A stretch of DNA of 64,000 nt from Candidatus Nomurabacteria bacterium (lineage in GTDB: Bacteria > Patescibacteriota > Minisyncoccia > Phycocordibacterales > UBA918): NCBI GenBank assembly GCA_020632075.1, contig JACKGH010000001.1, positions 42,133 to 106,132 on the forward strand, read 5' to 3'. The position numbers and the translations under genes were made by a program. Positions 22,091-45,198 of the stretch are shown here, piece by piece; positions within the stretch are counted from its first letter, which is position 1, and the number at the start of each line of letters is the position of its first letter. Below the pieces are notes generated by a model. The model did no database searches and had not been told where the DNA came from. It saw nothing but the letters and a program-made list of their open reading frames with translations.

Positions 22091-22093
22091 GCA

Positions 22094-22654: not shown

Positions 22655-22671
22655 ATTAGAAAGATAAAATT

Positions 22672-28710: not shown

Positions 28711-29110
28711 AGTGATTTACGGACGAGAGCCGAAGCGCCTCTTTTATGAGACGCTTTTGCTCTTTCGTTAATGGTTCATCAGTCGATACCTTTCCTGAAA
28801 TCTCAAGCTTGTTGCTGTACCGAGAATTGTGCGTGGTCAAATACAAGCGAATTGCTTTAAACTCTCGATCACCAATAAGAGAAAACAGTTGATTCTCCGC
28901 AACATCAGACATAAACGTTCGACCCTCAACAAGCGCATCTTCGACCTGTTTTTTGAAACGCTTGTTGCTATTGATCCAGCGATACACAGTGGCTCGACCA
29001 ACACCCACTTTCTGACATGCTGTCTCGATGGTTGGGGTACGTTTAAGTTGCTCAAGAAACGCTTCCTTGAGTTTCTTTTGCCGAGCGTGAATAGTGTCAC
29101 GCCTGCTCAT
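28688..29110 (-). CDS. Terminase small subunit-like HTH protein.
   Basis: MSRRDTIHARQKKLKEAFLEQL...TACQKVGVGRATVYRWI has a HTH and sits upstream of TerL. The start was chosen at the internal Met to avoid overlap with the MTase. Confidence 0.5.
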   Translation of the reverse strand: MSRRDTIHARQKKLKEAFLEQLKRTPTIETACQKVGVGRATVYRWINSNKRFKKQVEDALVEGRTFMSDVAENQLFSLIGDREFKAIRLYLTTHNSRYSNKLEISGKVSTDEPLTKEQKRLIKEALRLSSVNHYGKKKEK

Positions 29111-29864
29111 ACGGTTTTGCTTTAATGCTGGTAAGTTTCTCGAAGCGGGCAATGATAGTCGCACAGTACTCAGGGTCGAGTTCAATACCTACACACTTTC
29201 GCTTAGTCTGCTCGCAAGCGAGTAGTGTCGTTCCAGAGCCAAGAAAGCTATCGAAAACAACATCACCGACTCGAGTGCTGTTCAGAATCAGACGACGAAT
29301 CAAATCAAGCGGTTTTGTGGTCGGATGCATCTTGCTTTGGTTTGGCTTTGGACACACGAGCACACTCTTATCTTTGGATTTCACAAACTCATGTGTGCCG
29401 TACCAGCCATACACAATCAGTTCATGTTGTGGTGCGTAATCAAGCCGACCTACAACTGCATGCGTCTTCACCCAGATAAGTAACTGGGCAAACTTCACAT
29501 CTAGTTCATTCATCGCTTCTCGCAGCGCAAACACCATCTTGTCTGCGTTGAAGATATAGAGACCATTCTTTCGTTCTAGATGTGATAACACAGGAGCAAG
29601 CCATGCTTTGGTGAATTCGCGATATTCATCGTCACTTTGGATATGGTCGTTGGTAATTACTTTGTCTTTAGCGAGAGTCTGGAAGTTACGTTTACTCTCC
29701 GTTACTGCCACTCCATACGGAGGATCACTTATAACCGCTTTGATCTTTTTATCTCCAATAATCTTGGCTACTAGCTCAGCATTCCGAGCATCACCACAGG
29801 CGAGGACATGCTCGCCAAGCACGAAGATGTCTCCGTGCTTAATTGAGTTTTGTAACTGGCTCAT
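29097..29864 (-). CDS. DNA methyltransferase (N6-adenine/N4-cytosine family, DPPY).
   Basis: Motif IV SDPPYGV and motif I FDSFLGSGTTLLACEQ. Confidence 0.85.
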   Translation of the reverse strand: MSQLQNSIKHGDIFVLGEHVLACGDARNAELVAKIIGDKKIKAVISDPPYGVAVTESKRNFQTLAKDKVITNDHIQSDDEYREFTKAWLAPVLSHLERKNGLYIFNADKMVFALREAMNELDVKFAQLLIWVKTHAVVGRLDYAPQHELIVYGWYGTHEFVKSKDKSVLVCPKPNQSKMHPTTKPLDLIRRLILNSTRVGDVVFDSFLGSGTTLLACEQTKRKCVGIELDPEYCATIIARFEKLTSIKAKPYEQA

Positions 29865-31119
29865 GTGAGAGTTTCTTAAATCGGTTGATAATCACCTGAC
29901 AGAAGACAGGCTCTATTTCGTTGAGGTACGCAGTACGCTTTAGCTGCTCGCAAGCTGAGAGAATACTCCCTGAGCCAGCGGTCAGGTCGAGTACAGTGTC
30001 TCCTGGTTTGGTACAACGGCGTAATGCTTTTTCGTGCAGTGTCGGATTCTTCTGGGTTGGATGTTCATATTCGCTACCAGGAATCCGCTTTACGAGCCAG
30101 ATGTTGAAGAGGTCTAGAATGTCGTCAGTTAGCCGATTGCCAGAAGAGACTTCTTTATTAATCACTTCGTTAAGATTCTTCAGTGAGTCATTCAGATACG
30201 GCTTACCAACCGTGCCGTACACGCAATATTCAGTAACTTTGTTGAATGCCACCTTCGGGGTGGGTGACTGATTGTCTTTGATCCAAATACAGAGCCGCTT
30301 CGAATCTACTCCTAGCTCTCGGTAGAGTTGCTGGAATAACCAAACGTATCGCTCGTCGGTCCAAAACATTACATGAGCGTCTGGTTTTGCTACCGACAGC
30401 GCATTTTGCATGATGGTGCGGATAAACAACTGATACTCATCGTCAGATTTGTTGTCATTTGTAGTACCACCGTACTTTGCTTTATTCCCGACACCTTTGT
30501 CGTATGACAATCCTATATTGAATGGCGGGTCGTCGTTTATGAGATCTATTCGCACACCATTAGTGAGTTGCTTTACTGTCTCGGGATCTAAGGCATTTCC
30601 ACACATCAGACGATGTCTACCAAGAGAAAAATAATCTCCTGGTTTGATGTTTGTATCCTGTGCGTTCTCTACCTCTTTCTTTTCATCAAACTCATCATTC
30701 ACAATCTCTAAGTTGTCATCGAATATGAATGACAAATCTTGTGACTCAAATCCAGCTAGTAGGAGTTCATCAATGTTGAAATCTGATGCGAGCTTTTCGT
30801 AGTCCCACGTTCCGCCTGAGCGGTTTGAGGTGAGAAGATAGTCACGAAATTCAGCTTTAGTGAGTGGTCGATTTGGGACTCGTACTTCAATCTCTTCTTC
30901 TTCACGACCAAGGAGCGATAGTGCCAAGACCCGCTGATTTCCAGCCACCAAGGTTCCGTCTGTGTTAATACAAGGCAGCTCAGCAACGTTGAACTTGTTG
31001 AGACTACGCTTCAGTCCCTCTAGTTGAGAGTCTGTGAGTTTACGGGGATTTTTCCCGTATCTAATAAGGTCTTTAACTTTCCGACGTTCAGTACGCCAGA
31101 CTAATTTTTGTTTAGCCAT
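29839..31119 (-). CDS. ParB-like nuclease domain fused to a DNA methyltransferase (N6A/N4C family).
   Basis: The N-terminus RYGKNPRKLTDSQLEGLKRSLNKFNVAELPCI...AGNQR is ParB/Srx-like. It is followed by DDPPFNIG (motif IV) and LDLTAGSGSILSACEQ (motif I). Confidence 0.85.
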   Translation of the reverse strand: MAKQKLVWRTERRKVKDLIRYGKNPRKLTDSQLEGLKRSLNKFNVAELPCINTDGTLVAGNQRVLALSLLGREEEEIEVRVPNRPLTKAEFRDYLLTSNRSGGTWDYEKLASDFNIDELLLAGFESQDLSFIFDDNLEIVNDEFDEKKEVENAQDTNIKPGDYFSLGRHRLMCGNALDPETVKQLTNGVRIDLINDDPPFNIGLSYDKGVGNKAKYGGTTNDNKSDDEYQLFIRTIMQNALSVAKPDAHVMFWTDERYVWLFQQLYRELGVDSKRLCIWIKDNQSPTPKVAFNKVTEYCVYGTVGKPYLNDSLKNLNEVINKEVSSGNRLTDDILDLFNIWLVKRIPGSEYEHPTQKNPTLHEKALRRCTKPGDTVLDLTAGSGSILSACEQLKRTAYLNEIEPVFCQVIINRFKKLSHEPVTKLN

Positions 31120-31151
31120 GTTATGTGGGCTTAACTACTAATCAGTCCAAC

Positions 31152-31186
31152 AAAAACACCAACTCAAATAAATGGTTGGTGTTTTT
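31152..31186. promoter_or_regulatory. Perfect 12-bp-stem hairpin in the divergent regulatory region between the MTase operon and the XRE gene.
   Basis: aaaaacaccaac-tcaaataaatg-gttggtgttttt. A related AAATGGTTG motif repeats at 31228-31241. Confidence 0.4.
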
Positions 31187-31506
31187 GCTTTCAGCCTTAA
31201 GAGATAGTTGACGAATGCAACAAACAGCAACCAAATGGTTGTATTTGTTACCTTCGTCAAAGACCCCTTTGTCTCCGATCAGTGACTGACCGGCTCCGGC
31301 ATCCTCCTCTGACTCATCAAATACTTAAAAGTATCTGGTCGCCGCATTTTGTTATGGCGCTGAAAGGCGTATGTGTTCCTGATGAACCTACTTATAAGGG
31401 TAGTACGTTTTTGAAATTACGCAACCTAGTTATTCAGAAGTAGGTAACTAAGGCTTCGCAAATACCCTGAAGTAAGCTAGAGTGCCAAAATAACTACAAA
31501 AAAGCG

Positions 31507-31788
31507 ATGTTTAATCTGAGCAATAGTAGTATCCTATATGATAACGTTGTGTTATATTGCAACAAGGCGTATAGTCAAATTATGAAAAGCGAGTCGCAAA
31601 AATTGGGCAATAACCTCAAACGAATTAGAACTGAGAAAGGTATTTCGCAGGGTGACATTGCTCGTGAGCTTGAGGTAAGCAGAAGCTTTATAAGCAATAT
31701 CGAGAACGGTAAAACAAACCCGACTTTGTCGACTATTTCGAAACTTGCAAAAACTGTTGGAGTCTCTGTGAGCGAATTAACAAAATAA
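31507..31788 (+). CDS. XRE-family HTH transcriptional regulator.
   Basis: LKRIRTEKGISQGDIARELEVSRSFISNIENGKTNPTLSTISKLAKTVGVSVSEL. The true start is probably MKSESQ at 31582. Confidence 0.75.
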   Translation: MFNLSNSSILYDNVVLYCNKAYSQIMKSESQKLGNNLKRIRTEKGISQGDIARELEVSRSFISNIENGKTNPTLSTISKLAKTVGVSVSELTK

Positions 31789-31798
31789 TTTTAATAAC

Positions 31799-32305
31799 AT
31801 GACATTCGACCCACAATTAATCTTATTATTCATCAACACAGTCGCTGTCATTTTTGTAATCGCACTGTTTTTAACTAAGAATGATACTGCCAGAAACGGT
31901 GACGCTGGTGATATTTACGAGAGGATTAAGAATGATATCAAATTCACATTCGAACCAATGGTCGATATACCACTTGGTGTCGAGGAAATCGTCGACCTTG
32001 CGGTAGAAGTGTGGCGAATGGAACAAAGGTTGTCTAAAGCGTCCGAAAATATACCAGAGATACACCAACGCAGTCTTTCAAATTCAATAAATCGTCTAAA
32101 GAGTTACTTAAATAAGTACGATGTAGAAATCCATGACTATACAGGACAAAAATATAACGATGGATTAAATTTTGACATTCTCTCCAGAGAGCAGGACCCG
32201 ACTCTTGAATCACCAATCGTAAAAGAAACAGTTGAGCCTACCATTACATGCAGAGGTAAGGTGGTGAAGAGGGCAAAAATCATATTGGCATCAAATCAAA
32301 AATAG
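31799..32305 (+). CDS. Hypothetical N-terminally membrane-anchored protein; first gene of the cargo operon.
   Basis: TM LILLFINTVAVIFVIALFL. The next gene starts 3 nt after its stop. Confidence 0.5.
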   Translation: MTFDPQLILLFINTVAVIFVIALFLTKNDTARNGDAGDIYERIKNDIKFTFEPMVDIPLGVEEIVDLAVEVWRMEQRLSKASENIPEIHQRSLSNSINRLKSYLNKYDVEIHDYTGQKYNDGLNFDILSREQDPTLESPIVKETVEPTITCRGKVVKRAKIILASNQK

Positions 32306-32307
32306 TT

Positions 32308-34800
32308 ATGGCAACTCGAAATATACAAATTGGAATTGATTTAGGTACCACAAACTCAGAGGTGGCAATTAATAATGGATCTGCTATTGAAATAATCAAG
32401 AATGGTTTTAATGATGAGTATACTCCTTCAGTATTTGGTGTAGATAAATCAAAAAATAAAATCGTGGGTAAAAAAGCCTATGAAAGATTGTTTAAATATT
32501 CATCAACCGAAGAACTAAATAACAACAAAGCTGAGGTTAAGAGAATCATGGGAACCTCAGAGACAGTACGTTTTGATAGAACAAATGAAGAATTACAACC
32601 TGAAGAGATTTCCGCAGAGATTTTGAAGTCACTAAAAGAAGACATTTTAAGAAAGTATAGTGACTTTGAGACTACGTCTGCTGTCATCACGATACCCGCT
32701 CACTTTTCTGTTGTTCAAGCTGAAGCAACCAAGAGAGCTGGAAATATAGCTGGATTTAATTATGTTGTTTTGCTCCAAGAACCAATCGCAGCCGCAATCG
32801 GTTACGGTTTTATGAATGCTAAGAACGAAAACTGGTTAGTATATGATCTTGGCGGCGGCACATTTGATGTTGCATTAATTTCTGCAAAAGATGGAAATCT
32901 TACTGTTGTTGCTCAAAACGGTGACAACTTCTTAGGAGGAAAAGACTTCGATAAATTGATAATCGATAAAGTCTTAATTCCAAAAATCAAAGAAGAATTC
33001 AACGTACCCGACCTAAAAGATGATCAAGTCGTTTTCTCTAAACTCAAGAATCTAGCAGAGACAGCAAAAATTGAACTAACCTCATCTGATAAGACTAATA
33101 TCCAAGTAGAAAACATTGGTGAGGATATGAATGGAAATGAAATTTATCTATCCATTGATTTCACTCGGTCAGAATTTGAGAAGCTTATCAAACCTCTAGT
33201 AGAACGAACAATAAAACTGAGTCAGGAAACAATTAAAGAATCTGGCATTAAACAGAGTTCAATCAATAAAATCATACTTGTTGGCGGACCTACATTAATT
33301 CCTTATATAAAAGATCGCCTTGAACGAGACCTAAAGATTGAGGTTGATACCAGTGTCGATCCTCTAACAATTGTTGCAAGAGGGGCTTGTATCTACGGAG
33401 TCAGTCAACAAATACCTGAAGAATTTCTGGAAAAAAGAGCTGATGCCGCTGAATCAATGTCGGTAAAATTACACTTCGACTCACTGTCATCTGATATTGA
33501 GACAACCATTAGTGGTGTAGTTGAGGATTTGAGGGACTCGGAAGAAGAGTATTATATTCAAATCCAAAGCGACTCAGGTACCTATAGTGGCCCAAAGATT
33601 AAAGTTAAAGGAGGTAAATTTTTTGACACTATAACCCTCGACAAAAATAAAACTAACCTATTCTGGATTTATCTTTTCGATTCTGAGGGAAACACTATTC
33701 AGATTGACCCTGACTCCTTTACTATTATTCACGGATTGTCTATATCTGGTGCGCCAATCCCTCATTCTGTTGGGGTTGGAGTTGTTAAGAAGGATTTTAA
33801 GACAGGTATTGCTACCGAAGTATTTGATAAATACTTTTCAAAAAATAGCACCTTGCCACTCGAAGAGACAAAAATCTTTAAGACTCTCAGAAAGCTTAAA
33901 AAGGGCGACAAAGATAACGCTCTACCTATCAATGTATATGAGGGAGAGTCTGACAGACAGGACAGAAATCAAAGAATCTGCAGCCTCAAGCTAACTGGTG
34001 AGCAGATACCCTATGATCTTCCTGAAGGAACTCCTGTTGAAATTACCATAAAGATTAATGAATCTCGCGAAGTCTCAGTTAATGCTTACATTGAGTCAAT
34101 TGATCTTTCTGTAGATGCCCGGGCAACTATTCATGATGAAGAACTGGACGTTGAGCAAATGAAGTCAGAGCTTGAACTACAAAGAAATCGAATTTCGAAT
34201 GCCAAGGAAAACTGCTCGGATGCTGAACGTAGAGATCTGGAAAACACATACGAATCCGTAGACGATAGTTTGCAAAGAGCTGAGGACGATCAGGATGAGA
34301 AAAGAAAAGCTAATAAGCAACTCAAAGATTTAAAGATTCAACTTGACTCCATCGAGCGAGACAAAGAAATGCCACAGCTAACTCGTGAATTTCGTGATGG
34401 CCTAATGAATGCAGACGAAACAATTAGAGAACTTGGTGATAAGGAAGAATACAATCAGCACAAAGAATTACTTGAAGCATTAAAGGCTGAAGGTGAAATT
34501 GCAATTGAAAACAACGACAAACATCTATTGGCTCGAGTGAATGAACAAATTGATGAGCTTAAGCAAAAGATTGTCTTTTCAAATCCTGCTGCATGGGCCT
34601 ATCTTTTCCAAAAGATAGTGTCAGAAAATAAGAATTTTATTAGCGACAAAGAAGCTGAATATTTCATCAACAAGGGACTTAGGTCAATTGAGGTTGGTGA
34701 TGTCGAAGAACTAAAGCGTTGCGTTAGAGGATTGCTGTTGTTGCTACCCCCTGAACAACAGCACATGATTCAAAGTTCAATGTCAGGTATAACTTATTAA
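32308..34800 (+). CDS. Non-canonical Hsp70 (830 aa): a complete actin-like NBD, a long insert, a degenerate SBD-beta and a helical C-terminus.
   Basis: IGIDLGTTNSEVA (phosphate 1), DLGGGTFDVAL (phosphate 2), ILVGGPTLIPYIKD (adenosine motif), and the SBD-like INVYEGESDRQDRNQRICSLKLTGEQIPYDLPEGTPVEITIKINESREVSVNA. Confidence 0.8.
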   Translation: MATRNIQIGIDLGTTNSEVAINNGSAIEIIKNGFNDEYTPSVFGVDKSKNKIVGKKAYERLFKYSSTEELNNNKAEVKRIMGTSETVRFDRTNEELQPEEISAEILKSLKEDILRKYSDFETTSAVITIPAHFSVVQAEATKRAGNIAGFNYVVLLQEPIAAAIGYGFMNAKNENWLVYDLGGGTFDVALISAKDGNLTVVAQNGDNFLGGKDFDKLIIDKVLIPKIKEEFNVPDLKDDQVVFSKLKNLAETAKIELTSSDKTNIQVENIGEDMNGNEIYLSIDFTRSEFEKLIKPLVERTIKLSQETIKESGIKQSSINKIILVGGPTLIPYIKDRLERDLKIEVDTSVDPLTIVARGACIYGVSQQIPEEFLEKRADAAESMSVKLHFDSLSSDIETTISGVVEDLRDSEEEYYIQIQSDSGTYSGPKIKVKGGKFFDTITLDKNKTNLFWIYLFDSEGNTIQIDPDSFTIIHGLSISGAPIPHSVGVGVVKKDFKTGIATEVFDKYFSKNSTLPLEETKIFKTLRKLKKGDKDNALPINVYEGESDRQDRNQRICSLKLTGEQIPYDLPEGTPVEITIKINESREVSVNAYIESIDLSVDARATIHDEELDVEQMKSELELQRNRISNAKENCSDAERRDLENTYESVDDSLQRAEDDQDEKRKANKQLKDLKIQLDSIERDKEMPQLTREFRDGLMNADETIRELGDKEEYNQHKELLEALKAEGEIAIENNDKHLLARVNEQIDELKQKIVFSNPAAWAYLFQKIVSENKNFISDKEAEYFINKGLRSIEVGDVEELKRCVRGLLLLLPPEQQHMIQSSMSGITY

Positions 34801-34808
34801 AATAGAAT

Positions 34809-36269
34809 ATGAATCTCTTAAAAGATAATGCATACCACATATTAGGCTTAGATACTTCAGCAAGCCAAAAAGAGATCTCCAAGAGGTCAAAAGAAATATT
34901 AACGCGCCTAAAAATTGACGATGTACCAGAGTACGAAATTGACTTAAATTTCTTTTCAAATTTTAGAACTGAGAATTCGGTAAAACTGGCACAATCTAAT
35001 TTATCGAATCCTAAGAAATTGATAAAAGAATACTTCTTTTGGTTTCAGGTTGCAGATAGCGTAGACGAAGAAGCTGTTGATTTTTTCAGAAAAGGACAAT
35101 TTGGTGAAGCTGCAAAAATATGGAAGGAGCATAGCCAAGGAGATACCATAAAGTCATTACTCTATAAAAAGAATTTGGCGATTTTAGTTACAATTCTCTT
35201 GTACAAATCAAAAGATGATGACCTCCTTAACAAGTCAGTCTCATTGTGGAGTGAATTAATAGGGTCTGATAAATTTTGGAACGGGTTTTCAAAAGTGTAT
35301 AAGTTACATGATGAATTGGGTTCTGACTCAGAAGTTATTAGTGATTTCAAAAGTAAGGTTGCCGATTATCTTTCTGACATTTATGCAGAGTTATCTTCAA
35401 TTCATCAGGACAAAGACTTTGTTACTTTGTTCGCAAAAAATTTTGGACTTAAGGGTGAAAAGATGGAGGCTGATGTATTGAACCCAATCTATAAAGTGAT
35501 AAATGACGCCGTTGAAGAATTGGATGCACTTGGCGTGAGTGATGACGGGGTGTTAGATCAAAAAGAAACCGCAGAGATTAAGCGACTTATTGGCATCATC
35601 CAATCTGAACTAAATAAGCTAATAGATCTTGGTTTGTACGATGATAGTAAGATTAAACTTGTACGTGACAGAGCTGCTGCTACCCTAAGAAAACTAAGTA
35701 TTGAGGTAAACAACAACTTAAATGAGGCTGATATTGCATTAGGTTTAAGTAAAATTGCCGATAGCATTTCAGGAACAACCAGCTTTAAGAGCAAGGTCCA
35801 GCAAGACATTAAAACTCTTGAAGAAAATCAAGCCTATAAAGCAAAGGAAGAAAAGCAAAAGGCTATTATTGATCCAATTCTGGCCACTTTTAAAGCTGGC
35901 GACTCAGAGAAGGCACTTCAGACAATTAATGCTTACATCTATAACGAAAGTACTGACCCTGATTTAAAAGAAACGTTATTAGAAATTAAAAAAGTTATTG
36001 AGGAACGTATCGTCCAACATGGTAAACCAGTAAAAAGTGCCCCCACCTTGTTTACTCTTAACGGTTTCGGTACAAAAATATATGGTGACACTTTGTATGT
36101 CACACTTTTGTTCATACCAGTAATTCCTCTCTCTCGATACTCCTTGGTTAATAATGGTGACAATTACAGTTTCCAGGGGAAGTTGGAATTGCGAGAGTGG
36201 CAAAAGATTTGGAAGGTGGTGGGTTTGATCGCGGTCGGTATTATCGTGCTTATGATGTTTAGCAGCTAG
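34809..36269 (+). CDS. J-like domain protein lacking the HPD motif, with a C-terminal transmembrane anchor.
   Basis: N-terminal AYHILGLDTSASQKEISKRSKEILTRLKIDDVPE aligns with DnaJ YYEILGV...EIRKAYKRLAMKYHPD, with HPD replaced by IDD. The C-terminal TM is WKVVGLIAVGIIVLMMF. Confidence 0.6.
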   Translation: MNLLKDNAYHILGLDTSASQKEISKRSKEILTRLKIDDVPEYEIDLNFFSNFRTENSVKLAQSNLSNPKKLIKEYFFWFQVADSVDEEAVDFFRKGQFGEAAKIWKEHSQGDTIKSLLYKKNLAILVTILLYKSKDDDLLNKSVSLWSELIGSDKFWNGFSKVYKLHDELGSDSEVISDFKSKVADYLSDIYAELSSIHQDKDFVTLFAKNFGLKGEKMEADVLNPIYKVINDAVEELDALGVSDDGVLDQKETAEIKRLIGIIQSELNKLIDLGLYDDSKIKLVRDRAAATLRKLSIEVNNNLNEADIALGLSKIADSISGTTSFKSKVQQDIKTLEENQAYKAKEEKQKAIIDPILATFKAGDSEKALQTINAYIYNESTDPDLKETLLEIKKVIEERIVQHGKPVKSAPTLFTLNGFGTKIYGDTLYVTLLFIPVIPLSRYSLVNNGDNYSFQGKLELREWQKIWKVVGLIAVGIIVLMMFSS

Positions 36270-36273
36270 GCTT

Positions 36274-36867
36274 ATGAATGATCACTTAGACTTCAACACA
36301 GATTTTTTAAATAATCCTGTTTCTGGTAAGAATCAGGGTCCATCTAATGATAACCAACCCAAAAATGGTGGGGGTAAAAAAGGTTGGATTATAGCAGCAG
36401 TCATCTTCGGTGTCCTTATTGTTATTGGTGCGATGGAAGATTCTGGTTCAACAGGTTCAACTTATACACCAACAACCAACTCGACGTACAGCAACAACAC
36501 GAACACTTCTGCTGATCATTCATTAGTATTTGATGGGCAAACTTTTAGATGTTCTGATTATCACTATGATAAAGCGATGGCATTGAGGCCAGACGCAACA
36601 CTGAGCGCACAAATAGATTCAGAGAGTGCAGCTCTAGATTTGCGTATTAGTAGTCTAGACTCAGAAGCGGCTAGGATAGACGCAATGTATGTTGATGAGT
36701 ATAGCCAGTGGTCGATTGATAACTACAACGCAGCTGTTGATGCATATAATGTTAAGAAAAATAGACTACAAGCCGATATTGATAGTTGGAATCTAAAAAA
36801 CACTTCTTTTAATAGAAAAATTGATGCTTACAACAATTACCTAGATACTAACTGCCGACCACAATAA
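36274..36867 (+). CDS. Single-pass membrane protein with an extracytoplasmic domain (197 aa).
   Basis: TM WIIAAVIFGVLIVIGAM. A Thr/Ser/Asn-rich linker follows, with repeated AYN/YN motifs. Confidence 0.5.
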   Translation: MNDHLDFNTDFLNNPVSGKNQGPSNDNQPKNGGGKKGWIIAAVIFGVLIVIGAMEDSGSTGSTYTPTTNSTYSNNTNTSADHSLVFDGQTFRCSDYHYDKAMALRPDATLSAQIDSESAALDLRISSLDSEAARIDAMYVDEYSQWSIDNYNAAVDAYNVKKNRLQADIDSWNLKNTSFNRKIDAYNNYLDTNCRPQ

Positions 36868-36870
36868 ATT

Positions 36871-37926
36871 ATGTCAATTCAAACAAAACCAATTCTACAT
36901 AATGGCTTTGAAATCAGAGAAGGCCTAAAAGTAAAGAGTCGTATCGACAAGGTATTTTTCACTGAGATTTATCACCTTGATAACGACACATACTTCTACC
37001 TCTTCCTAAATCTCAATCCTAACGAAATTATCGATAAGCGAGGGCGGTATGAATTAGTGAGGATTAATATCTCTTCTAAGGAGTGGATTGGAGCTATTGT
37101 AAAAAGTAATACTAACCCCGCTTCTGTCATTGAGGAGTTAACTACTCTGCGAGGATTTGATCAGATTGCTGGAATGCAAGAACTAAAGAATCTATTGATT
37201 GCAGAAGTGATAAATCCGCTACGAGATCCTGCTAGATTTGAAAAATTCAAAGTGTCTATACCTAACGGAATTTTGCTTTACGGTCCTCCGGGATGCGGAA
37301 AAACCTTCATCGTAAGAAAACTTGCGGAAGAGCTGGGATATAACTTTTTTGAAGTAAAACACTCAGACCTTGCAACGCCTTTTATACATGGATCAGTAGG
37401 TAATATTGGTAAGGTTTTTGAAACCGCAAAACAGAATTCACCAGCTGTTGTATTTTTTGATGAAATCAGTGGTCTTGTACCAAACCGTCAAAATTTGAAT
37501 GATTCATCTTCACACAAAGAGGAAGAGGTTAACGAGTTTTTGATTCAGCTTAACGATGCTGCTGATAATAATATTCTAGTTGTAGGTGCAACGAACTATA
37601 TTGATCGAATTGACCCAGCGATATTGAGGCCAGGACGAATGGATAAAAAGATTCATGTCCCACCACCTGACGCAGAAGCCAGAAAAGAACTATTCAAGCT
37701 TGGTCTTTCAGGTCGTCCGCACGATGAGAATATCGACTTTGAACACCTAGCTAAAATAACCGATGGCTACAGTAGCGCTGACATTATTGAGGGTATAGTT
37801 GAAGGAGCTGCTCGTCTGGCTGCGAACATGGATAAACAAGAAATTGATCAGGAACTACTAGAAAAAGAAGCAGCTAAACTTAAACCTGTAGAAGAAGAAA
37901 AGCCGAGATTTGGTTTCGGTGCGTAA
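36871..37926 (+). CDS. Classical-clade AAA+ ATPase (CDC48/FtsH/Vps4-like module) with an approximately 100-aa N-domain.
   Basis: Walker A GILLYGPPGCGKTF, Walker B VVFFDEISGL, and a second region of homology with Arg fingers GATNYIDRIDPAILRPGRMDKKIHV. Confidence 0.8.
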   Translation: MSIQTKPILHNGFEIREGLKVKSRIDKVFFTEIYHLDNDTYFYLFLNLNPNEIIDKRGRYELVRINISSKEWIGAIVKSNTNPASVIEELTTLRGFDQIAGMQELKNLLIAEVINPLRDPARFEKFKVSIPNGILLYGPPGCGKTFIVRKLAEELGYNFFEVKHSDLATPFIHGSVGNIGKVFETAKQNSPAVVFFDEISGLVPNRQNLNDSSSHKEEEVNEFLIQLNDAADNNILVVGATNYIDRIDPAILRPGRMDKKIHVPPPDAEARKELFKLGLSGRPHDENIDFEHLAKITDGYSSADIIEGIVEGAARLAANMDKQEIDQELLEKEAAKLKPVEEEKPRFGFGA

Positions 37927-37937
37927 TTTAGTAATCA

Positions 37938-38600
37938 ATGGAAATCGACTCAAAAGAAATCATTCTGCAATTGTTGAAAGGGATGTGGGAAATGAAGTCA
38001 CTATACCTCATGCTGTTTGGAGTGGTTGTCTTGGCCTTAATTGCAAGAATCCTTATGGATTTGATGAGCCGACAAAGTCAAATTAAGTGGTTTCTAGGCA
38101 AGCAAAAAGTTCAGGACTTGCAAAAGCTCACACCTTCACAATTTGAGGAATATATCGCCGAACTATTTAAATCACTTGGCTATCAAGCAGTTGTAACTGG
38201 CGGTAAGGGTGATGGAGGAGTCGATGTTGAAGCAGAAAAAGACGGCATCAAACACTACATTCAATGCAAAAAATTCATCACATCAAAAGTACCCGTTGGA
38301 GCAGTGCGTGACTTCTACGGTGCTATTGCAGATAGGATTGATGGTGGAAAGGGTTATTTCATCACTACAAATGTTTTTACACTTGATGCTGAACATTTTG
38401 CAGAAGATAAACCAATTGAACTAGTTGATAAGTTCAAGTTGATGGAATACATGCACATGGCGAATGTGGAAGTTCCAGAGTCCACTCCCGTCGTGTGTCC
38501 AAAGTGCGGATCCGAGCTTATTCGTCGCAGTGGTAAATACGGTCCCTTTATGGGCTGTAGTACGTATCCAAAGTGTGACTACACAAAGAAACTCGCATAA
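37938..38600 (+). CDS. Membrane-anchored Mrr-type (type IV restriction-like) PD-(D/E)XK nuclease fused to a topoisomerase-type C4 zinc ribbon.
   Basis: N-terminal TM LYLMLFGVVVLALIARILM; Mrr_cat-like FEEYIAELFKSLGYQAVVTGGKGDGGVDVEAEKDGIKHYIQCKKF; and C-terminal CPKCGSELIRRSGKYGPFMGCSTYPKCDY. Confidence 0.65.
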   Translation: MEIDSKEIILQLLKGMWEMKSLYLMLFGVVVLALIARILMDLMSRQSQIKWFLGKQKVQDLQKLTPSQFEEYIAELFKSLGYQAVVTGGKGDGGVDVEAEKDGIKHYIQCKKFITSKVPVGAVRDFYGAIADRIDGGKGYFITTNVFTLDAEHFAEDKPIELVDKFKLMEYMHMANVEVPESTPVVCPKCGSELIRRSGKYGPFMGCSTYPKCDYTKKLA

Positions 38601-38606
38601 GGTTAT

Positions 38607-39677
38607 ATGGATAAAGAAGTCGCATATAAGCCAAACACAACAGCCTGTGAGGATCTACCATATCCAATAGTATTATATCCCGGTTTCTACGGCTCCTTTT
38701 TCGCATTTAAGCAGAATAAAAAAGCAAAACCTCACTTTTGTTCATGTGCGTACGAAGCAATAGAAAACTACATTAGAATCAGACAGTCATCTGAGATTCC
38801 ATTGAACTCATACCCTGATCGTATGTACTTATTGGATTCCCACGATTTTCCAAAATCTGTTGTCCAGACTTTGATGCAATCCAACATACCTGACGATCAG
38901 GTGTTGGCGAATCTTAACTTTGCTGACAAGTTATGTCATGAGTGCAATTTGCAAACTCCTTCGTATCGCTATTGTGTAGAGATGTACGGAGGTGCATTCA
39001 AGCAAAATTATGGTTGGTACATAGGAAAACAAGCATACGAGTGGGGTTTTGATAGGAGTAAAAGTAAGTTGTTGATCGACAGTTTGTGTCCTGAAGATCT
39101 TCTTGAGTTGGTCAATGATGAATCCTTCCAGTATGGTAGAAAGAGACGAAGAGAAATTGCAGATAAAACGTTTGAGTTCGATAGAGATTTTGCAAACATT
39201 TCAGATGTAGATCGACAAGAATACAGTGCTTTGTTCCAAGAAGCTCGAAATATTGATAAAAGTCTCTCAAAACACTACAGAAAGATCAACAATGTTGTTG
39301 AGAACGAAGTGCGAAGGAAATTTGGTCATAAGAATGTTGGTGAAGCATGGACTAGTGAAACAATTCTCTACTACATAGTAAAAAAACTATATCCTGAACA
39401 TACAATCCACCGTCACTATCGTCCTGACTTTTTAGATGGTCTAGAATTAGATATTTACATTGAGGAGCTGAATATAGGTATTGAGTACCAAGGCATTCAG
39501 CACTACAAGCCAGTAAAACACTGGGGTGGTGAAGATGCGTTAAAAAAGTTGCAACAAAGAGATAAAAAGAAGAGGAATATTTGCAAAAAGATTGGAATTC
39601 CACTTATCTATTTTGAACATGATGAGGGATTGAGCGATAGTCTAGTTGTAGCGAAGTTAAGTGATTATGAAAGTTAG
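38607..39677 (+). CDS. Hypothetical protein with a C-terminal DUF559/Vsr-like PD-(D/E)XK endonuclease domain.
   Basis: The C-terminus HRHYRPDFLDGLELDIYIEELNIGIEYQGIQHY...RDKKKRNICKKIGIPLIYFEHDE aligns with the DUF559 core (YIVDF...LVIELDGGQHY...RD..L...G..VLRF.N.E). Confidence 0.5.
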   Translation: MDKEVAYKPNTTACEDLPYPIVLYPGFYGSFFAFKQNKKAKPHFCSCAYEAIENYIRIRQSSEIPLNSYPDRMYLLDSHDFPKSVVQTLMQSNIPDDQVLANLNFADKLCHECNLQTPSYRYCVEMYGGAFKQNYGWYIGKQAYEWGFDRSKSKLLIDSLCPEDLLELVNDESFQYGRKRRREIADKTFEFDRDFANISDVDRQEYSALFQEARNIDKSLSKHYRKINNVVENEVRRKFGHKNVGEAWTSETILYYIVKKLYPEHTIHRHYRPDFLDGLELDIYIEELNIGIEYQGIQHYKPVKHWGGEDALKKLQQRDKKKRNICKKIGIPLIYFEHDEGLSDSLVVAKLSDYES

Positions 39678-40239
39678 AATAAAGAAATTGATACAAAGAT
39701 TAAAAACTGACAAGAAACTGGCAGGTCTTTTTTTTCTATATGTTGCTACGGTGGTCGTTGTTTCTTATTTATTTATTCAGTGGCCTGAATATGCAAACAA
39801 GACTACCTACATTCTTTTCCTAATTTCTCTAATGCTGGTCACGTTGTTTACTTGGTCAATGGCAGCGTTGGCTATCTTCAGGTCTCTTCTAGTTGTTGGT
39901 GCAGGACTATCACTAGTGTTGTTCATTGCTCAATCGTACTGCGCCTTACCTCTTAACGAACAGGTTGCAGACGACTCTCTACAGAGCTTGATTGGAATAA
40001 GTGTTTTGTTTATAGGCGTGATGTTTTTTAATCGACTGTACCGCGAGCTGTTTGGTAATCCAGAATCGAAGCGTGAATTTGATAAGCTTGGTGCACTTAA
40101 AGTCTTTCGGGAAGCAAACAAAGGTAAGGATTCTGTTTTAATCCTTGTTCTTTACGCTTCCTTTATGGGTCTTATTCTAGGTCAGTTGTTCCAAGTTTTG
40201 TTCCCGATTTTTATTAACCTTTGTGTTTATCAACCATGA
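39667..40239 (+). CDS. Multi-pass membrane protein (about 5 TM).
   Basis: Overlaps the upstream stop; has five hydrophobic helices. Confidence 0.5.
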   Translation: MKVRIKKLIQRLKTDKKLAGLFFLYVATVVVVSYLFIQWPEYANKTTYILFLISLMLVTLFTWSMAALAIFRSLLVVGAGLSLVLFIAQSYCALPLNEQVADDSLQSLIGISVLFIGVMFFNRLYRELFGNPESKREFDKLGALKVFREANKGKDSVLILVLYASFMGLILGQLFQVLFPIFINLCVYQP

Positions 40240-40883
40240 CTGAATTATTAAAAATAGTACACAAATGTGTAGACAAGATTAAAGACGATTTTCTTTTGTT
40301 TTCAGTTGCAACTTTAGTATTAATGGTTGCTTTTCCAGAAGCAAAGATGACAACCTTCATTGTCTATGGCACTGCGGTGCTTATTTATGTTGTCGTAACT
40401 CTGATTAAAAGTAGAAAGCAGGAAACGAACAATCGTTTTTTACAGAATGTAGATGATTTCTTAAACGATCCAGCTTCTTGGGAACGTCGCACTATTGATC
40501 ATTCAGATGTCTATTTCTATTCTAGAGATAACAATTACAAAATTGTAACTGGTGACGAGTCAATACGTGAGTGGGAACCAAACATTGAACCTTGGATGCA
40601 AAATTTTCCAGACCCTCATGTTTCTGAGTACAACGTGTATTTAAAGCATGGAGAGAACACAATTGCAGAGTATAAATTTGTATATTGTGATGGTGCAAGA
40701 TATTTTATGCCCTTACCTAAAAAGCGTTGTGCTGAACCAGGAGATGATTTCAGATGCAATAGGTTCGAGTATATTTGGAATCGCAATTCAATCGAATATA
40801 AAATTGGTACTGTAATAGGTGATTTTTATAGGTATGAAAATCTGGAAGAGGTAGCTAGATTCTGCGGTATCGTGATTGAGTAA
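40236..40883 (+). CDS. Membrane-anchored hypothetical protein (2 TM plus a soluble domain).
   Basis: ATGA start/stop overlap with the upstream gene. TMs are FLLFSVATLVLMVAF and FIVYGTAVLIYVVVTLI. Confidence 0.5.
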   Translation: MTELLKIVHKCVDKIKDDFLLFSVATLVLMVAFPEAKMTTFIVYGTAVLIYVVVTLIKSRKQETNNRFLQNVDDFLNDPASWERRTIDHSDVYFYSRDNNYKIVTGDESIREWEPNIEPWMQNFPDPHVSEYNVYLKHGENTIAEYKFVYCDGARYFMPLPKKRCAEPGDDFRCNRFEYIWNRNSIEYKIGTVIGDFYRYENLEEVARFCGIVIE

Positions 40884-40897
40884 TCTATGGATTTTGT

Positions 40898-41845
40898 ATG
40901 TATAAAAACTTATATGACAAACATAAAATTAGAGGTGCCTTTATTACAGAAGACAATAAGAAGTTAATAGTAAACTTCGAGTTTTCAAACAAGGTAGTAT
41001 CCTTTAACAAAGGTCAGCTAATCGAAACGACTGAGACCTTAGAGAGGGCGGAAGTGAAAACTGTACTAGAGAAAGATAAGTATTTTGTATGTGTTGTTTC
41101 GACACCTGAAGCTGACCTCGATTTTCTTTATAAGATTTCCCTCGCGATTGCTTATGTAGTTGGTCAGAATTTTGAACTTCAATACTACTTCAAAGAATTT
41201 CCATACTATCCAACAAGTCACCACTGGAACATTGATAGCTGCAATCCAATATCGCGAAGACTTTTTGAAGACCTTTTACGTTCACCAAGTAACACTATCA
41301 GATTTTTACTTTCATTATTGCGCGATGACGCAACTGCTTTTTCACAACTTGTACCAACAATGTTGGTAGTAAACGCATACAATCACTCAGAAGTAAGCTT
41401 TATTACAGAGTTTGGTCTATTACAAAAGCTTTCCAAGAGGCACGATGCCGACAGTAAGTTGTTCACAGCCGAAAATGATCTAGATAAGCTATCACAGTTT
41501 TCTAATACAATACTTGAAACACTCCAGTTAGATTATACTGATATCAATATACCTGCACTAGAAAAGAAGTTATCGACAGAAAGCTTAAATAGTAAAACCG
41601 CTACAAACGAAAAGATTGTTTCGTATTTAAACAGTTTTGATAAAGAAAGAATAAAGTCGTGTGCTGAATATGTCCCACAATGGAATAAGTTGAGAAGTTC
41701 TGCACTTGTGACTCACGGAGGCAGACCGATCAATGTCAAAGATGCAGATAAACGTGGAAAAATGCACAAACTTCACGAACTATTATTGGACATAGTTAGT
41801 CTAGAGGTAAATGCAAAATATGGAGATGCTGGCATTCTAGACTGA
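40898..41845 (+). CDS. Hypothetical soluble protein (315 aa).
   Basis: In-operon ORF; no motif recognised. Confidence 0.45.
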   Translation: MYKNLYDKHKIRGAFITEDNKKLIVNFEFSNKVVSFNKGQLIETTETLERAEVKTVLEKDKYFVCVVSTPEADLDFLYKISLAIAYVVGQNFELQYYFKEFPYYPTSHHWNIDSCNPISRRLFEDLLRSPSNTIRFLLSLLRDDATAFSQLVPTMLVVNAYNHSEVSFITEFGLLQKLSKRHDADSKLFTAENDLDKLSQFSNTILETLQLDYTDINIPALEKKLSTESLNSKTATNEKIVSYLNSFDKERIKSCAEYVPQWNKLRSSALVTHGGRPINVKDADKRGKMHKLHELLLDIVSLEVNAKYGDAGILD

Positions 41846-41865
41846 TGAGCATACAATGAGGACTA

Positions 41866-43194
41866 ATGGAGTATCTCAAACCAAAACACTACTACACTGA
41901 CCTCTACGATAAACATACAGTCGAACGCTGTCGTCGTATTGAAAGTACGAATAGCATGCCTGATGCAGATCGCCCGAAGAAAGTCAGTAAGAAAGAAGCT
42001 GAAGCAATCAACGACTGGGCACACAACCTCATCCTTACCTTTGAGAAAGGGTCTCGCTGGTCCAATAAAGAAAAGACCATTAATGATTGGATGGAGAGAG
42101 ATAGAAGACGAGACGAGCTATTAGAATCAGCCAAAGCGCCAGAAGATATCCGCTGCCTCACGTGTCGTAATCGTATGGAACCTAATCACCGACAGCTTTG
42201 GCACGGTGATGAAGATAAGCCAGATCGTGTCCTCTTTATGTATGACTGCCCGAACCAGTGTCTTCCACGGCGGGCATTTTTTGATGATGGTAAGGAATGG
42301 CGCAGTACCCCACACCTCTGTGCTCGTTGTGGCAATCCAACCAATCACACGGTCTCTGATGACAAAGAGAAAATGGTCACAACGTACACTTGTCCAACTT
42401 GTCATCATGTTGAAGTTGATGAGTACGTCTGGAATAAGCCAGAAGATGAATACGATGAACACTTCGCGACGGATCGTGATCGATTCTGTGTTTCAGATGA
42501 AGAAGGGAGAAATATAGAAGACATGAAATGGCAAATGGAGCGCATGGGTGACTTTGCTAAGGAGTGGGAAGAGAAAGAAAAAGCTCGTGCCAAGAAACTA
42601 GAGGAGAACCCAAAAGGATTTCACCTTGAGGGTGCTGGCTATACTTGTTCGATTTGTCGCAATAGTACCCCTGCAGGAGACAACTGGTACGATAAATGGG
42701 GTATCAAATGTCTAGTGTGTCAGTGGTCCATTGATCATAAAGAAATACCAGCCTCACTCGCCAAGAATGAGGATAGCTGGTATCGAAAGTATGACTTTGA
42801 ACACTATTTTAATGTGAAGGGTCAGACGCTCAATAAATGGGTTAGAGAAGGTCTGGTAAAAGCTCGAACGGTGAGTCGTTACGGTGAAGGTGTGCATACG
42901 CAAGTATTCCTTGTCAAAGATAACAAGGATTTCCTGCCTCCTAAGAAGTTACTTGAATCAAAGCGGGGTCGAGTTGTAGAGAATGGCAAAGAGGAGGTGC
43001 GAATACTGCCTTGGTACTGCTTTGGTGATCCGCACGAAATATTGAAAGGATACAAGATCATGGATTATTTACGAGTACTGTCTCCAGAAGAGGTAGAACA
43101 ACGAGAGAAAGAACGTCAGGAGAAAGCGGAGAAACGCAGACTGCATCGTGAGAAAGTAAAAGCTGCTAGAGAGAAGCGCAAGAAGCGTAAATGA
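41866..43194 (+). CDS. Multi-zinc-ribbon protein with a Lys/Arg-rich C-terminal tail.
   Basis: Three CxxC...CxxC pairs (CLTCRN...CPNQC; CARCGN...CPTCHH; CSICRN...CLVCQW), a GGA-rich RBS, and a tail EKRRLHREKVKAAREKRKKRK. Confidence 0.55.
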   Translation: MEYLKPKHYYTDLYDKHTVERCRRIESTNSMPDADRPKKVSKKEAEAINDWAHNLILTFEKGSRWSNKEKTINDWMERDRRRDELLESAKAPEDIRCLTCRNRMEPNHRQLWHGDEDKPDRVLFMYDCPNQCLPRRAFFDDGKEWRSTPHLCARCGNPTNHTVSDDKEKMVTTYTCPTCHHVEVDEYVWNKPEDEYDEHFATDRDRFCVSDEEGRNIEDMKWQMERMGDFAKEWEEKEKARAKKLEENPKGFHLEGAGYTCSICRNSTPAGDNWYDKWGIKCLVCQWSIDHKEIPASLAKNEDSWYRKYDFEHYFNVKGQTLNKWVREGLVKARTVSRYGEGVHTQVFLVKDNKDFLPPKKLLESKRGRVVENGKEEVRILPWYCFGDPHEILKGYKIMDYLRVLSPEEVEQREKERQEKAEKRRLHREKVKAAREKRKKRK

Positions 43195-44043: not shown

Positions 44044-44102
44044 GCCGCCTCACCAAGAAAACCGGTGGAGGCGGTTTTCTTTTGTCTAAATCACAAAGAA
44101 AG

Positions 44103-44162
44103 TTCCAACTTCGTCCCATACGGCCAGCGAGATTGACAAATAGTACTTAATGTGCTACTTTA
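44103..44162 (+). promoter_or_regulatory. Promoter module copy 1: conserved upstream box, TTGACA, a 17-nt spacer, and an extended -10 TGcTACTTT.
   Basis: cttcgtcccatacggccagcgagaTTGACAaatagtacttaatgTGcTACTTT. Near-identical to copy 2. Confidence 0.6.
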
Positions 44163-44482: not shown

Positions 44483-44542
44483 ACGCCCTACGTAGAAATT
44501 GCTCTACGGAGGGCGATTTCTATTTTAAATACTCAAAAAAAG

Positions 44543-44602
44543 TTCGAACATCGTCCCAAACTGCCAGCGAGATTGACAAATAGCATTTAATGTGCTATTT
44601 TG
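44543..44602 (+). promoter_or_regulatory. Promoter module copy 2.
   Basis: catcgtcccaaactgccagcgagaTTGACAaatagcatttaatgTGcTATTTT. Confidence 0.6.
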
Positions 44603-45067: not shown

Positions 45068-45138
45068 TTCTGTCCGTTTGTGTACCTATAAATCCCGCGC
45101 AATGTGTGCGGGATTTCTTATTTACAAAAGGTTCTAAC

Positions 45139-45198
45139 TTCGTCCCAAGCGGCCAGCGTATTCAATATTGACAAAAATTCAAAAAAGTGTATAGTATT
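45139..45198 (+). promoter_or_regulatory. Promoter module copy 3: the same upstream box displaced by about 10 bp, then TTGACA-N16-TATAGT.
   Basis: cttcgtcccaagcggccagcgtattcaataTTGACAaaaattcaaaaaagtgTATAGT. Confidence 0.55.

Follow-up and report, generated by a model that had tools for sequence, protein, structure and literature searches.

A recent review of prokaryotic Hsp70 chaperones recognizes three types, DnaK, HscA, and HscC; the last is a sporadic, probably horizontally acquired Hsp70 encoded beside the tail-anchored proteins DjlB and DjlC, and it is stimulated by DjlC (PMC8215388). Hsp70 homologs also occur in predicted conflict operons. CnuD, whose Walker motifs are degenerate, belongs to CoCoNuT with its McrB-like GTPase core (PMC11090510), and HSP70, GrpE, and DnaJ proteins accompany GAP1-N2/DO GTPases in GTPase-centered conflict systems, some with tubulin or HEPN (Kaur et al. 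2020; PMC7159879). Here, we analyze a window of 64,000 nucleotides (the whole stretch of DNA considered) from a Candidatus Nomurabacteria bacterium (contig JACKGH010000001.1, positions 42,133 to 106,132). At 31799-37926 of this window, on the plus strand, lie five genes in the order GrpE-like protein, Hsp70, J-like protein, single-pass membrane protein (c4), and AAA ATPase, headed by an XRE-family regulator. We interpret this mobile cassette as a complete, membrane-tethered Hsp70 system, in which the co-factors are predicted to be anchored and the interface between J-domain and Hsp70 has been rewritten on both sides. It is of a known kind, a specialized Hsp70 machine; what is new is the five-gene, membrane-anchored cassette itself, which was previously undescribed.

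Conservation of the core

Related loci were obtained from six exact-protein look-ups, from an alignment of the J-like protein (37 genome loci and one IMG/VR locus), and as two distant variants. All open reading frames (ORFs) of these loci, each of which carries an L number, were clustered, and counts were taken over 39 non-redundant loci. By comparison with about 45 related loci, the region 31507-43194 falls into three layers, namely the conserved core, a variable 3′ cargo (ORF7-ORF11, 37938-41845, plus strand), and the backbone of the surrounding element. The GrpE-like and Hsp70 genes are each present in 38 of the 39 loci, the J-like gene in 37, and the AAA gene in 35; core genes missing from a locus reflect contig ends or ORF-calling artifacts. 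The c4 gene was detected by BLAST in 24 loci. Gaps between core genes are short throughout, with medians of 3-6 nt. A sequence-only reading that preceded this work had taken the region for a single eleven-gene operon, and had named the co-occurrence of its Hsp70-like, J-like, and AAA genes in other genomes as its own test, which these counts answer in its favor.

The gene at the operon head (31507..31788, plus strand) encodes a helix-turn-helix (HTH) regulator of the XRE family (Pfam HTH_3, 3e-18) that matches the HTH_VI, control-protein, and capH models of PADLOC. Its cluster, c7, lies close to the cassette in 15 of the 39 loci, and in 10 it stands on the plus strand 1-5 nt upstream of the GrpE-like gene.

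The cassette occurs in many classes of the candidate phyla radiation (CPR; Patescibacteria), in Omnitrophota, and in a Melainabacteria metagenome-assembled genome, with a few bins probably mis-assigned. Copies in L036 (CAZNQS010000020.1), L022, L024, L038, L040, and L042 come from bins labeled as a Woesearchaeota archaeon, Gammaproteobacteria, Akkermansia, Proteobacteria, and Bacteroidota; these labels reflect either transfer across phyla or domains, or mis-binned CPR contigs.

The two distant variants differ in setting. In L047, the AAA gene is divergent and lies upstream of the GrpE-like, Hsp70, and J-like genes, so the association of the core is kept despite rearrangement. In this variant (L047:3858-12750), TPR repeats lengthen the J-like protein to 911 aa, and directly downstream is a gene with a Fic domain. 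L046 holds a distant version in a context that resembles a prophage or an integrative conjugative element, with ERF, SSB, Gp157, an integrase, and a resolvase. Downstream of the cassette there (L046:13338-22033) come a HerA/DUF87 ATPase and then eight co-directional genes without known function, and the setting may be an uncharacterized phage or conjugative element.

Within or after the core, other loci carry optional genes, including Yip1, RDD, and DUF6804 (24 loci) and an S49/NfeD peptidase (7 loci). Further options are an SNase with Excalibur, a Peptidase_A24, and a transmembrane (TM) zinc-ribbon-Top1 protein; zinc-ribbon-Top1 proteins are encoded downstream of the core in L003, L023, and L028.

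The Hsp70 and its co-chaperones

The second core gene (32308..34800, plus strand) encodes a non-canonical Hsp70 of 830 aa with a clear nucleotide-binding domain (PF00012, 3e-89). In an AlphaFold2 (AF2) model with a mean confidence score (pLDDT) of 79.9, this domain occupies residues 1-365 and is followed by an enlarged, double-sized beta region (384-605), which may include a substrate-binding-beta-like domain, and by a helical C-terminus of about 210 aa (615-827). The fold matches ATP-state BiP over 455 residues. More than 120 full-length homologs are known, 830-839 aa long and, across phyla, 58-98% identical, most of them from Patescibacteria. The best NCBIfam matches are to DnaK and HscA models, all far below their cutoffs, and the only PADLOC match is a spurious one to Cmr1 (E = 0.0017).

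An alignment of 37 family members separates two groups of residues, given here in DnaK numbering. The catalytic D8, K70, E171, D194, T199, and D201 are invariant. Residues R167, N170, T173, R151, N147, and D148 of DnaK bind the J-domain and relay its signal, and these are replaced family-wide: R167 by V, N170 by Q, T173 by I, R151 by A or S, N147 by S, and D148 by V or T. The residues that contact the J-domain are lost across the family, in parallel with the disappearance of HPD from the J-like partner.

That partner, the third core protein (34809..36269, plus strand), is encoded 8 nt downstream of the Hsp70 gene. Its AF2 model (pLDDT 87.6) shows a four-helix J-like N-terminus, an all-alpha body of helical repeats, a small beta unit, and a C-terminal TM helix (464-486) that would anchor it by its tail. 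At the position of HPD, the N-terminus has a long loop with IDD (IDD or IGE in the family). HPD is absent from all homologs checked, comprising 30-39 aligned sequences and 18 distant ones, and its place is taken by a conserved motif, I-[DGENS]-[DEQ]-x-P-x-[YF]-x-x-D. The protein has no Pfam DnaJ match, and its family has no Pfam model. With hhalign, residues 6-41 aligned collinearly, at low probability (E = 0.0016), to the J-domain of one E. coli DnaJ sequence. Clustered at 50% identity, the family comprises 227 representatives at E ≤ 1e-30, 884 at 1e-10, and 2274 at 1e-3.

The first core protein (ORF2; 31799..32305, plus strand) belongs, by prediction, to a membrane-anchored GrpE-like family of nucleotide-exchange factors, with an N-terminal TM anchor at residues 1-28. 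We assign it to GrpE because of Pfam GrpE matches among its homologs, just as the J-like label relies on the topology of the AF2 model of that protein. An NCBI protein of a Candidatus Nomurabacteria bacterium is 100% identical to it, which places the host in the CPR. A PF01025 match is precomputed for about 40 of 75 homologs, two proteins are named GrpE by their sources, and the C-terminal domain is conserved across the family (alignment A2). The window protein itself matches Pfam GrpE weakly (E = 0.044), and a search of PDB sequences with the family profile gave no GrpE match. Alignment by hhalign to one E. coli GrpE sequence was collinear with E = 0.01 and a probability of 4%.

A candidate membrane sensor and a Cdc48-like ATPase

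The fourth core protein, c4 (ORF5; 36274..36867, plus strand), is a predicted single-pass membrane protein with its TM helix at residues 33-58. A conserved cytosolic peptide (HLDFxxDFL) forms the N-terminus, and Lys residues precede the TM helix; beyond the helix, a linker rich in Ser and Thr leads to an extracytoplasmic coiled coil, which has two near-invariant Cys and YNxxVDxYN repeats (alignment A7). At 26-49% identity, it is the fastest-evolving member of the core. This layout makes c4 a candidate bitopic sensor or client.

The last core gene (36871..37926, plus strand) encodes a single-domain classical AAA ATPase (PF00004, 6e-35, with AAA_lid_3). Its best PDB match is the D2 domain of p97/Cdc48 (domain E = 1e-47). 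The Walker motifs A (GPPGCGKT) and B (FFDE) can be read in its sequence, as can RPGR and an aromatic pore loop, and the arginine fingers are present. About 95 aa at the N-terminus form a novel region.

Most of the individual calls made from sequence alone therefore hold. Pfam agrees with the XRE, non-canonical Hsp70, and classical AAA assignments at the E-values given above, and alignments, the AF2 model, and hydropathy bear out a J-like protein in which IDD stands where HPD would be and the C-terminus carries a TM helix. The four additional TM proteins that had been counted correspond to ORF2, ORF5, ORF9, and ORF10 by hydropathy; the GrpE-like identity of ORF2 had been missed. The claim of novelty survives for the core, for which we found no description in the searched literature. 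In PADLOC-DB v2, only the AAA, XRE, Mrr, and ORF10 proteins match models, and the GrpE-like, J-like, and c4 proteins match none. What fails is the joining of the chaperones with two nucleases in one system, a pairing that is not conserved.

Comparison with described systems

The closest functional analog of the cassette is HscC with DjlB and DjlC. Each case combines a sporadic, additional Hsp70 with a tail-anchored co-chaperone encoded next door, and membrane clients are implied. DjlB and DjlC have functional HPD J-domains, whereas the cassette has lost both HPD and the residues that read it throughout the family. HscC is about 556 aa long and is not known to have a dedicated exchange factor or AAA partner; the Hsp70 of the cassette is far longer, at 830 aa, its beta region is enlarged and its helical tail extended, and it comes with an anchored GrpE-like factor and a Cdc48-like AAA.

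With the DnaK–DnaJ–GrpE and ClpB machinery, the cassette shares an Hsp70 with an intact catalytic site and a putative substrate-binding-beta-like domain, a factor of the GrpE family, and an AAA+ unfoldase. It departs from the former in that its co-factors are membrane-anchored, that HPD is missing, and that R167, N170, T173, and allosteric hub residues are replaced. Unlike ClpB, its AAA protein is a single-ring ATPase of the classical Cdc48 type, and the cassette is mobile and accessory rather than housekeeping. A chaperone of the normal CPR housekeeping set was considered and rejected, given the sporadic distribution, the linkage to recombinases, and the foreign GC content.

The mitochondrial import motor (PAM) consists of mtHsp70, Tim44, Pam18, Pam16, and Mge1, of which Pam16 is a J-like protein without HPD. 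Here too, an Hsp70 would be held at a membrane by anchored partners, with a GrpE-type factor and an HPD-less J-like subunit. The resemblance comes without evidence of homology beyond the shared families; the cassette has an extra AAA protein and sits in bacterial mobile elements, and neither an HPD-bearing J partner nor a channel component was identified in it. A single HPD-type J-protein was noticed among the Pfam-annotated contexts that we inspected, an ankyrin-repeat protein with a true DnaJ domain (PF00226) about 8 kb downstream of the cassette in L003/L004 (20843-21598).

The AAA protein invites comparison with Cdc48/p97 and Msp1-type extractases, since it is p97 D2-like, keeps the pore loop and arginine fingers, and is co-encoded with membrane-anchored partners. 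It differs from them in having a single AAA domain and the novel N-region, in the lack of ubiquitin-type adaptors, and in its partnership with an Hsp70 system.

CoCoNuT and the GTPase-centered systems resemble the cassette in that an Hsp70 homolog is part of a predicted conflict operon, which in one case also encodes GrpE and a J-domain protein. In contrast to CnuD, the cassette Hsp70 is catalytically intact as judged by its residues. Neither type of system fits the locus. No McrB-like GTPase or McrC/DUF2357 match was found in the operon with Pfam, NCBIfam, or PADLOC, and no GTPase or tubulin domain is present in the operon or in the conserved core of the 39 loci. IetAS, a defense pair of an AAA protein and a protease (Gao et al. 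2020), was also considered. The AAA protein matches the PADLOC IetA models at 2e-33, and some related loci have an S49/NfeD protease after the core. TRIP13 models are similar as well, which indicates generic similarity of the AAA core. The score against the NCBIfam IteA model (NF042959) was 112 bits against a cutoff of 510, and the window ORFs at 31.5-43.2 kb include no IetS subtilase and no protease domain. We therefore rejected this assignment.

The mobile element that carries the cassette

By its gene content, the interval 25.85-43.2 kb is a small (~17 kb) integrative mobile element of a CPR bacterium, and is satellite-like rather than a prophage. Its left part is a backbone of genes on the minus strand. 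A large serine recombinase marks the left end (25853..27196; Pfam Resolvase, Recombinase, and Zn_ribbon_recom; phrog_95 integrase, 9e-66). It is followed by the large terminase subunit TerL (27241..28710; phrog_38, 3.5e-78), whose cluster c11 recurs in 7 loci, and by a TerS-like HTH protein (28688..29185) that matches terminase-small families of PHROGs at about 2e-8 and the Pfam families HTH_Tnp_1_2 and Sf6_terminase. Two tandem N6/N4 DNA methyltransferases (29097..31119; Pfam N6_N4_Mtase, phrog_498) complete this side. The upstream one (29839-31119) has a ParB-like N-terminal domain, as judged by matches to ParB-like PHROGs; its homolog in L049 is a ParB_N + N6_N4_Mtase protein.

At the right end, ORF12 (41866..43194, plus strand, GC 0.45) encodes three zinc ribbons, visible as three CxxC...CxxC pairs in the translation, and a basic C-terminal tail, in agreement with the triple zinc-ribbon protein of the sequence-only reading. 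Homologs (cluster c17) adjoin the cassette or the backbone in L012, L020 (70% identity), and L043. We assign ORF12 to the element and not to the cassette because of this recurrence and its backbone-like GC content.

That reading had also placed the operon in a phage-derived island. We instead find a small element that encodes a recombinase of the serine type, terminase subunits, and methylases. Among the element ORFs, Pfam and PHROGs revealed no gene for a capsid, portal, or tail, and no primase or replicase was recognized in the element; an intact prophage was rejected for lack of structural genes. Read from its genes, the element has the composition of a satellite similar to phage-inducible chromosomal islands, with an integrase, a regulator (XRE), its own TerS and TerL, and no structural genes. 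We found no convincing direct repeats (attachment sites) flanking it, as expected for a serine recombinase.

Linkage to recombinases extends beyond the window. The serine recombinase (cluster c6) directly adjoins the cassette, to its left or right, in 17 of the 39 loci and in L048-L050, and a tyrosine integrase lies close to it in 4 of the 39. In the smallest elements, L048 and L050, the XRE gene and the core five are joined only by the recombinase, TerL and TerS, a methylase, and one further small gene, so that the cassette fills about half of each. In both, a TerB_N-domain gene directly abuts the element (at the right end, e.g. L050:20867-21829). L050 has the chromosomal synteny of the window (SerRS, FtsQ, Dus, DnaX, His_Phos), but the two halves of its element have changed places and cargo is absent, which indicates independent or rearranged insertions.

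A different carrier is seen in L001 and L014, where a prophage lysis module (LysM protein, amidase endolysin) flanks the cassette on one side and a tyrosine integrase on the other. The interval between lysis module and integrase is a classical locus for accessory genes of temperate phages. Modules have also been exchanged between backbones, as the identity pattern in L020 implies. The XRE, Mrr, and ORF12 proteins of L020 (L020:6607-6939, 17505-17897, and 18642-19970) are 70-79% identical to those of the window and its Hsp70 only 60%; the window core is closest to L001 and L007. Core and flanks would thus have different histories. Homologs of the J-like protein number zero in 50,697 phage records, zero in 72,556 plasmid records, and one in IMG/VR. 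PHROGs has no family for the GrpE-like or J-like proteins and gave only a marginal match for c4 (E = 0.0012).

Operon layout and cargo genes

Twelve co-directional plus-strand ORFs span 31507-43194. They are separated by gaps of 10, 2, 8, 4, 3, 11, 6, 14, and 20 nt (range 2-20 nt) and overlap twice: ORF8 and ORF9 by 11 nt, if ORF9 starts at the ATG at 39667, and ORF9 and ORF10 in a true ATGA at 40236-40239. The sequence-only reading was thus right about the co-directional packing, the XRE head, and the ATGA-type overlap, but the gaps are wider than the 0-10 nt it had given. GC content is 0.35-0.41 from XRE to ORF11, 0.44-0.475 in the element backbone, and 0.49-0.50 in the chromosome. The backbone operon, which runs leftward, and the XRE-cassette operon, which runs rightward, diverge from an intergenic region (31120..31506) that is, by its position, the presumed control region. 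An Rfam scan returned no match there, and a tRNA-Gln was the only Rfam match found; counts from a promoter and terminator scan were not above the shuffled background.

The genes downstream of the AAA gene behave differently from the core, and we interpret ORF7-ORF11 as changeable cargo in a hotspot outside the machine. ORF7 (37938..38600, plus strand) is a predicted type IV restriction-like nuclease. As claimed from sequence alone, it combines an N-terminal TM anchor, an Mrr-type nuclease domain (Mrr_cat, PF04471, 1.5e-26), and a C-terminal topoisomerase-type zinc ribbon (Zn_ribbon_Top1, 1e-15). It carries GDGGVD...IQCKK, the D...(Q/E)xK pattern by which type IV (Mrr-like) endonucleases of the PD-(D/E)xK fold are recognized, and it matches the PADLOC models mREase_IV (3.8e-15), PDC-S02, and ZorD nuclease. 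The Mrr–zinc ribbon gene recurs in three elements only, namely the window, L049 (after the AAA gene), and L020, where the copy is truncated, lacking its N-terminal half, and apparently frameshifted. It is absent from about 40 of 43 loci, and no nucleases were found in the closest relatives L048 (86% Hsp70 identity), L050 (82%), and L001 (82%).

ORF8 (38607..39677, plus strand) had been called a DUF559/Vsr-like nuclease. A Vsr/DUF559-like C-terminal core is indeed recognizable, and the Pfam match is a weak one to DUF2726 (E = 0.005), but the strong matches are to homing-endonuclease-like families of phages: it matches phrog_19778 over nearly its full length (1.9e-70) and phrog_27771 at 3e-43, and its C-terminus matches PHROGs annotated as HNH, homing, or intron-encoded endonucleases. 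ORF8 is probably a selfish, free-standing homing-endonuclease-like gene that inserted into the operon.

The other three cargo genes, also on the plus strand, are less easily classified. ORF9 (39667..40239) is a multi-pass membrane protein with four to six hydrophobic segments and has no family match in Pfam, PADLOC, NCBIfam, or PHROGs. ORF10 (40236..40883), with two TM segments at residues 20-64, is related to PDC-S50 (5.9e-14), a candidate single-gene defense family of PADLOC. ORF11 (40898..41845) is a soluble protein of 315 aa without a match in Pfam, NCBIfam, or PHROGs. ORF8-ORF11 were found in no other collected locus.

Possible functions of the cassette

The reading that we tentatively favor, with somewhat less than even confidence, is that the cassette would be an element-borne conflict module acting at the membrane, in defense or superinfection exclusion, to the benefit of both the element and its host. 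Under such a mechanism, Hsp70 cycling would be kept close to the inner surface of the membrane by the anchored J-like scaffold and GrpE-like factor. The c4 protein could signal what happens at the envelope, for example adsorption or ejection by a phage, or could present its N-terminal peptide as a client. The AAA ring would then receive polypeptides associated with the membrane from the Hsp70, and would extract and unfold them; possible substrates are ejection or channel proteins of an incoming phage, proteins similar to holins, and the sensor itself. As an outcome, infection would be blocked or a response triggered. The optional add-ons (Mrr–zinc ribbon, SNase, S49/NfeD, and A24 peptidases) might provide extra effector activity.

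Add-ons of the nuclease and protease type, an XRE head that resembles the controllers of defense operons, and conflict-type neighbors support this reading. The conservation and mobility of the core, its complete but non-canonical Hsp70 system, and its predicted membrane tethering count in its favor as well. Among 146 non-redundant neighbors within 7 kb of the cassette, the conflict-type genes are AbiEii (2 of 146), AIPR, a BpuJI restriction enzyme with methylases, RhuM, PDC-S05, an LmuA-like gene, and a UvrD/GajB-like gene. The association of cassette neighborhoods with defense genes is therefore present but moderate.

Several observations weigh against a conflict role. The neighbors also include housekeeping genes (serine hydroxymethyltransferase, Mur ligases, penicillin-binding proteins), which leaves guilt by association as a moderate argument at most. 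Four of the five core proteins lack a PADLOC model, and the GrpE and J-like labels of the window proteins depend on weak profile scores together with family-level and model evidence. In L005, L024, L037, L042, L048, and L050, the five core genes come without a recognizable effector; there, a defense role needs the chaperone/AAA pair or the membrane proteins to be the effector. The cassette is a constant payload of the serine-recombinase/terminase family, which is equally compatible with a role in the life cycle of the element, and its frequent partners (Yip1, RDD, DUF6804, S49/NfeD) look more like membrane proteostasis than immunity.

Proteostasis is an alternative, which we consider unlikely though well within consideration. 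The cassette would be a mobile module for membrane proteostasis or stress tolerance, in which the Hsp70 and its anchored co-chaperones recognize a protein, the AAA ring extracts it, and S49/NfeD degrades it where present, with a fitness benefit to the carrier; the transmissible heat-resistance islands of proteobacteria offer a parallel. All core parts come from chaperone and unfoldase families, the recurrent partners are membrane proteins and proteases (those just named and Peptidase_A24), and the core often stands alone, with no nuclease or toxin-like effector. HscC with DjlB/DjlC would be a precedent for a sporadic, membrane-acting Hsp70 with tail-anchored partners (PMC8215388). For a general folding machine, however, it is unusual to lose HPD together with the Hsp70 residues that read it. 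No small heat-shock protein, ClpB/ClpK, or DegP genes lie alongside the cassette, and the tight linkage to recombinases, terminases, methylases, and accessory loci of prophages fits a stress module poorly, while the nuclease add-ons and defense-gene neighbors would be left unexplained. Alternatively, and with a distinctly low probability, the system could serve the life cycle of the element by remodeling the assembly or lysis proteins of a helper phage, by timing lysis or release, or by powering the passage of protein or DNA through the membrane, into or out of the cell. The cassette is constant across the serine-recombinase/terminase family, and in L048 and L050 it is the only content beyond recombinase, TerL, TerS, and methylase. 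In L046, the HerA/DUF87 ATPase and the co-directional unknown genes come after it, and the architecture of the cassette resembles Hsp70 translocation motors such as PAM. Yet L003, L005, and L047 have no terminase or recombinase within 10 kb, and the cassette also travels in another type of element, the prophages with a tyrosine integrase. The near absence of the J-like protein from viral and plasmid records (the single IMG/VR match) and the PHROGs results described above also argue against this alternative.

The model of the sequence-only reading, in which all eleven genes form one system and the Hsp70/J-like pair and the AAA protein regulate two PD-(D/E)xK nucleases at the membrane, seems very improbable. 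The genes are tightly packed in one direction and uniformly low in GC content from XRE to ORF11, the Mrr–zinc ribbon gene directly follows the AAA gene in L049, and zinc-ribbon-Top1 proteins occur downstream of the core in three further loci. Against this, the Mrr gene is confined to three elements, missing even from close relatives and frameshifted in L020; ORF8-ORF11 are found nowhere else; ORF8 has the phage homing-endonuclease-like affinity noted above; and ORF10 resembles a separate single-gene candidate system, PDC-S50.

In its fullest form, the conflict-module reading would make the cassette a fourth prokaryotic Hsp70 class beside DnaK, HscA, and HscC, with a membrane-anchored GrpE of its own, an HPD-less J-like scaffold with which the Hsp70 interface has co-evolved, a sensor exposed at the surface, and a Cdc48-like extractase. 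It would act as a new kind of anti-phage or superinfection-exclusion system, through ATP-driven extraction of proteins at the membrane, and would have been spread among ultra-small bacteria by terminase-encoding, satellite-like elements and prophages. We regard this whole proposition as possible but doubtful. To the three recognized Hsp70 types, the cassette would add a fourth that is large, mobile, and highly conserved, and the rewriting of the J-domain/Hsp70 interface on both sides would be a natural experiment on HPD-free Hsp70 coupling. An Hsp70 combined with a Cdc48-like AAA protein at a bacterial membrane also echoes the extraction and import machines of eukaryotes. If the role in defense or exclusion is true, this would be a categorically new type of immune system and the first with a full Hsp70 cycle at its base, and would give a view onto conflicts among phages, hosts, and satellites in CPR bacteria, which have barely been explored experimentally. 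If the role is instead in proteostasis, the cassette would still be a self-contained chaperone module that moves on mobile elements.

Surroundings of the element in the window

The first 14.5 kb of the window are chromosomal (SerRS, Dus, DnaX), and a tRNA-Gln lies at 14656-14727. Past this tRNA, across 14656-25852, GC content falls from about 0.50 to 0.44, and the stretch includes a P-type ATPase (17021-19057) and a multicopper oxidase (22672-24306). It is absent from L050, which has the upstream synteny, and is probably a separate metal-resistance island beside the Hsp70 element. Within it, a perfect palindrome of 18+18 nt without a spacer (15896-15931) lies between two minus-strand genes, one ending at 15880 and the other starting at 15947.

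To the right of ORF12, GC content returns to the chromosomal level, and the genes encode a membrane protein, a pilin-like protein, a cold-shock protein, and a flavoprotein. A repeated element of 31-68 nt occurs three times in this part (44094-44161, 44534-44601, and 45128-45158) with 87-88% identity and a TTGACA-type promoter-like box. The copies lie just upstream of small genes, namely a 96-aa ORF (44192), the pilin-like gene (44600), and the cold-shock gene (45283), and may represent a shared regulatory element.

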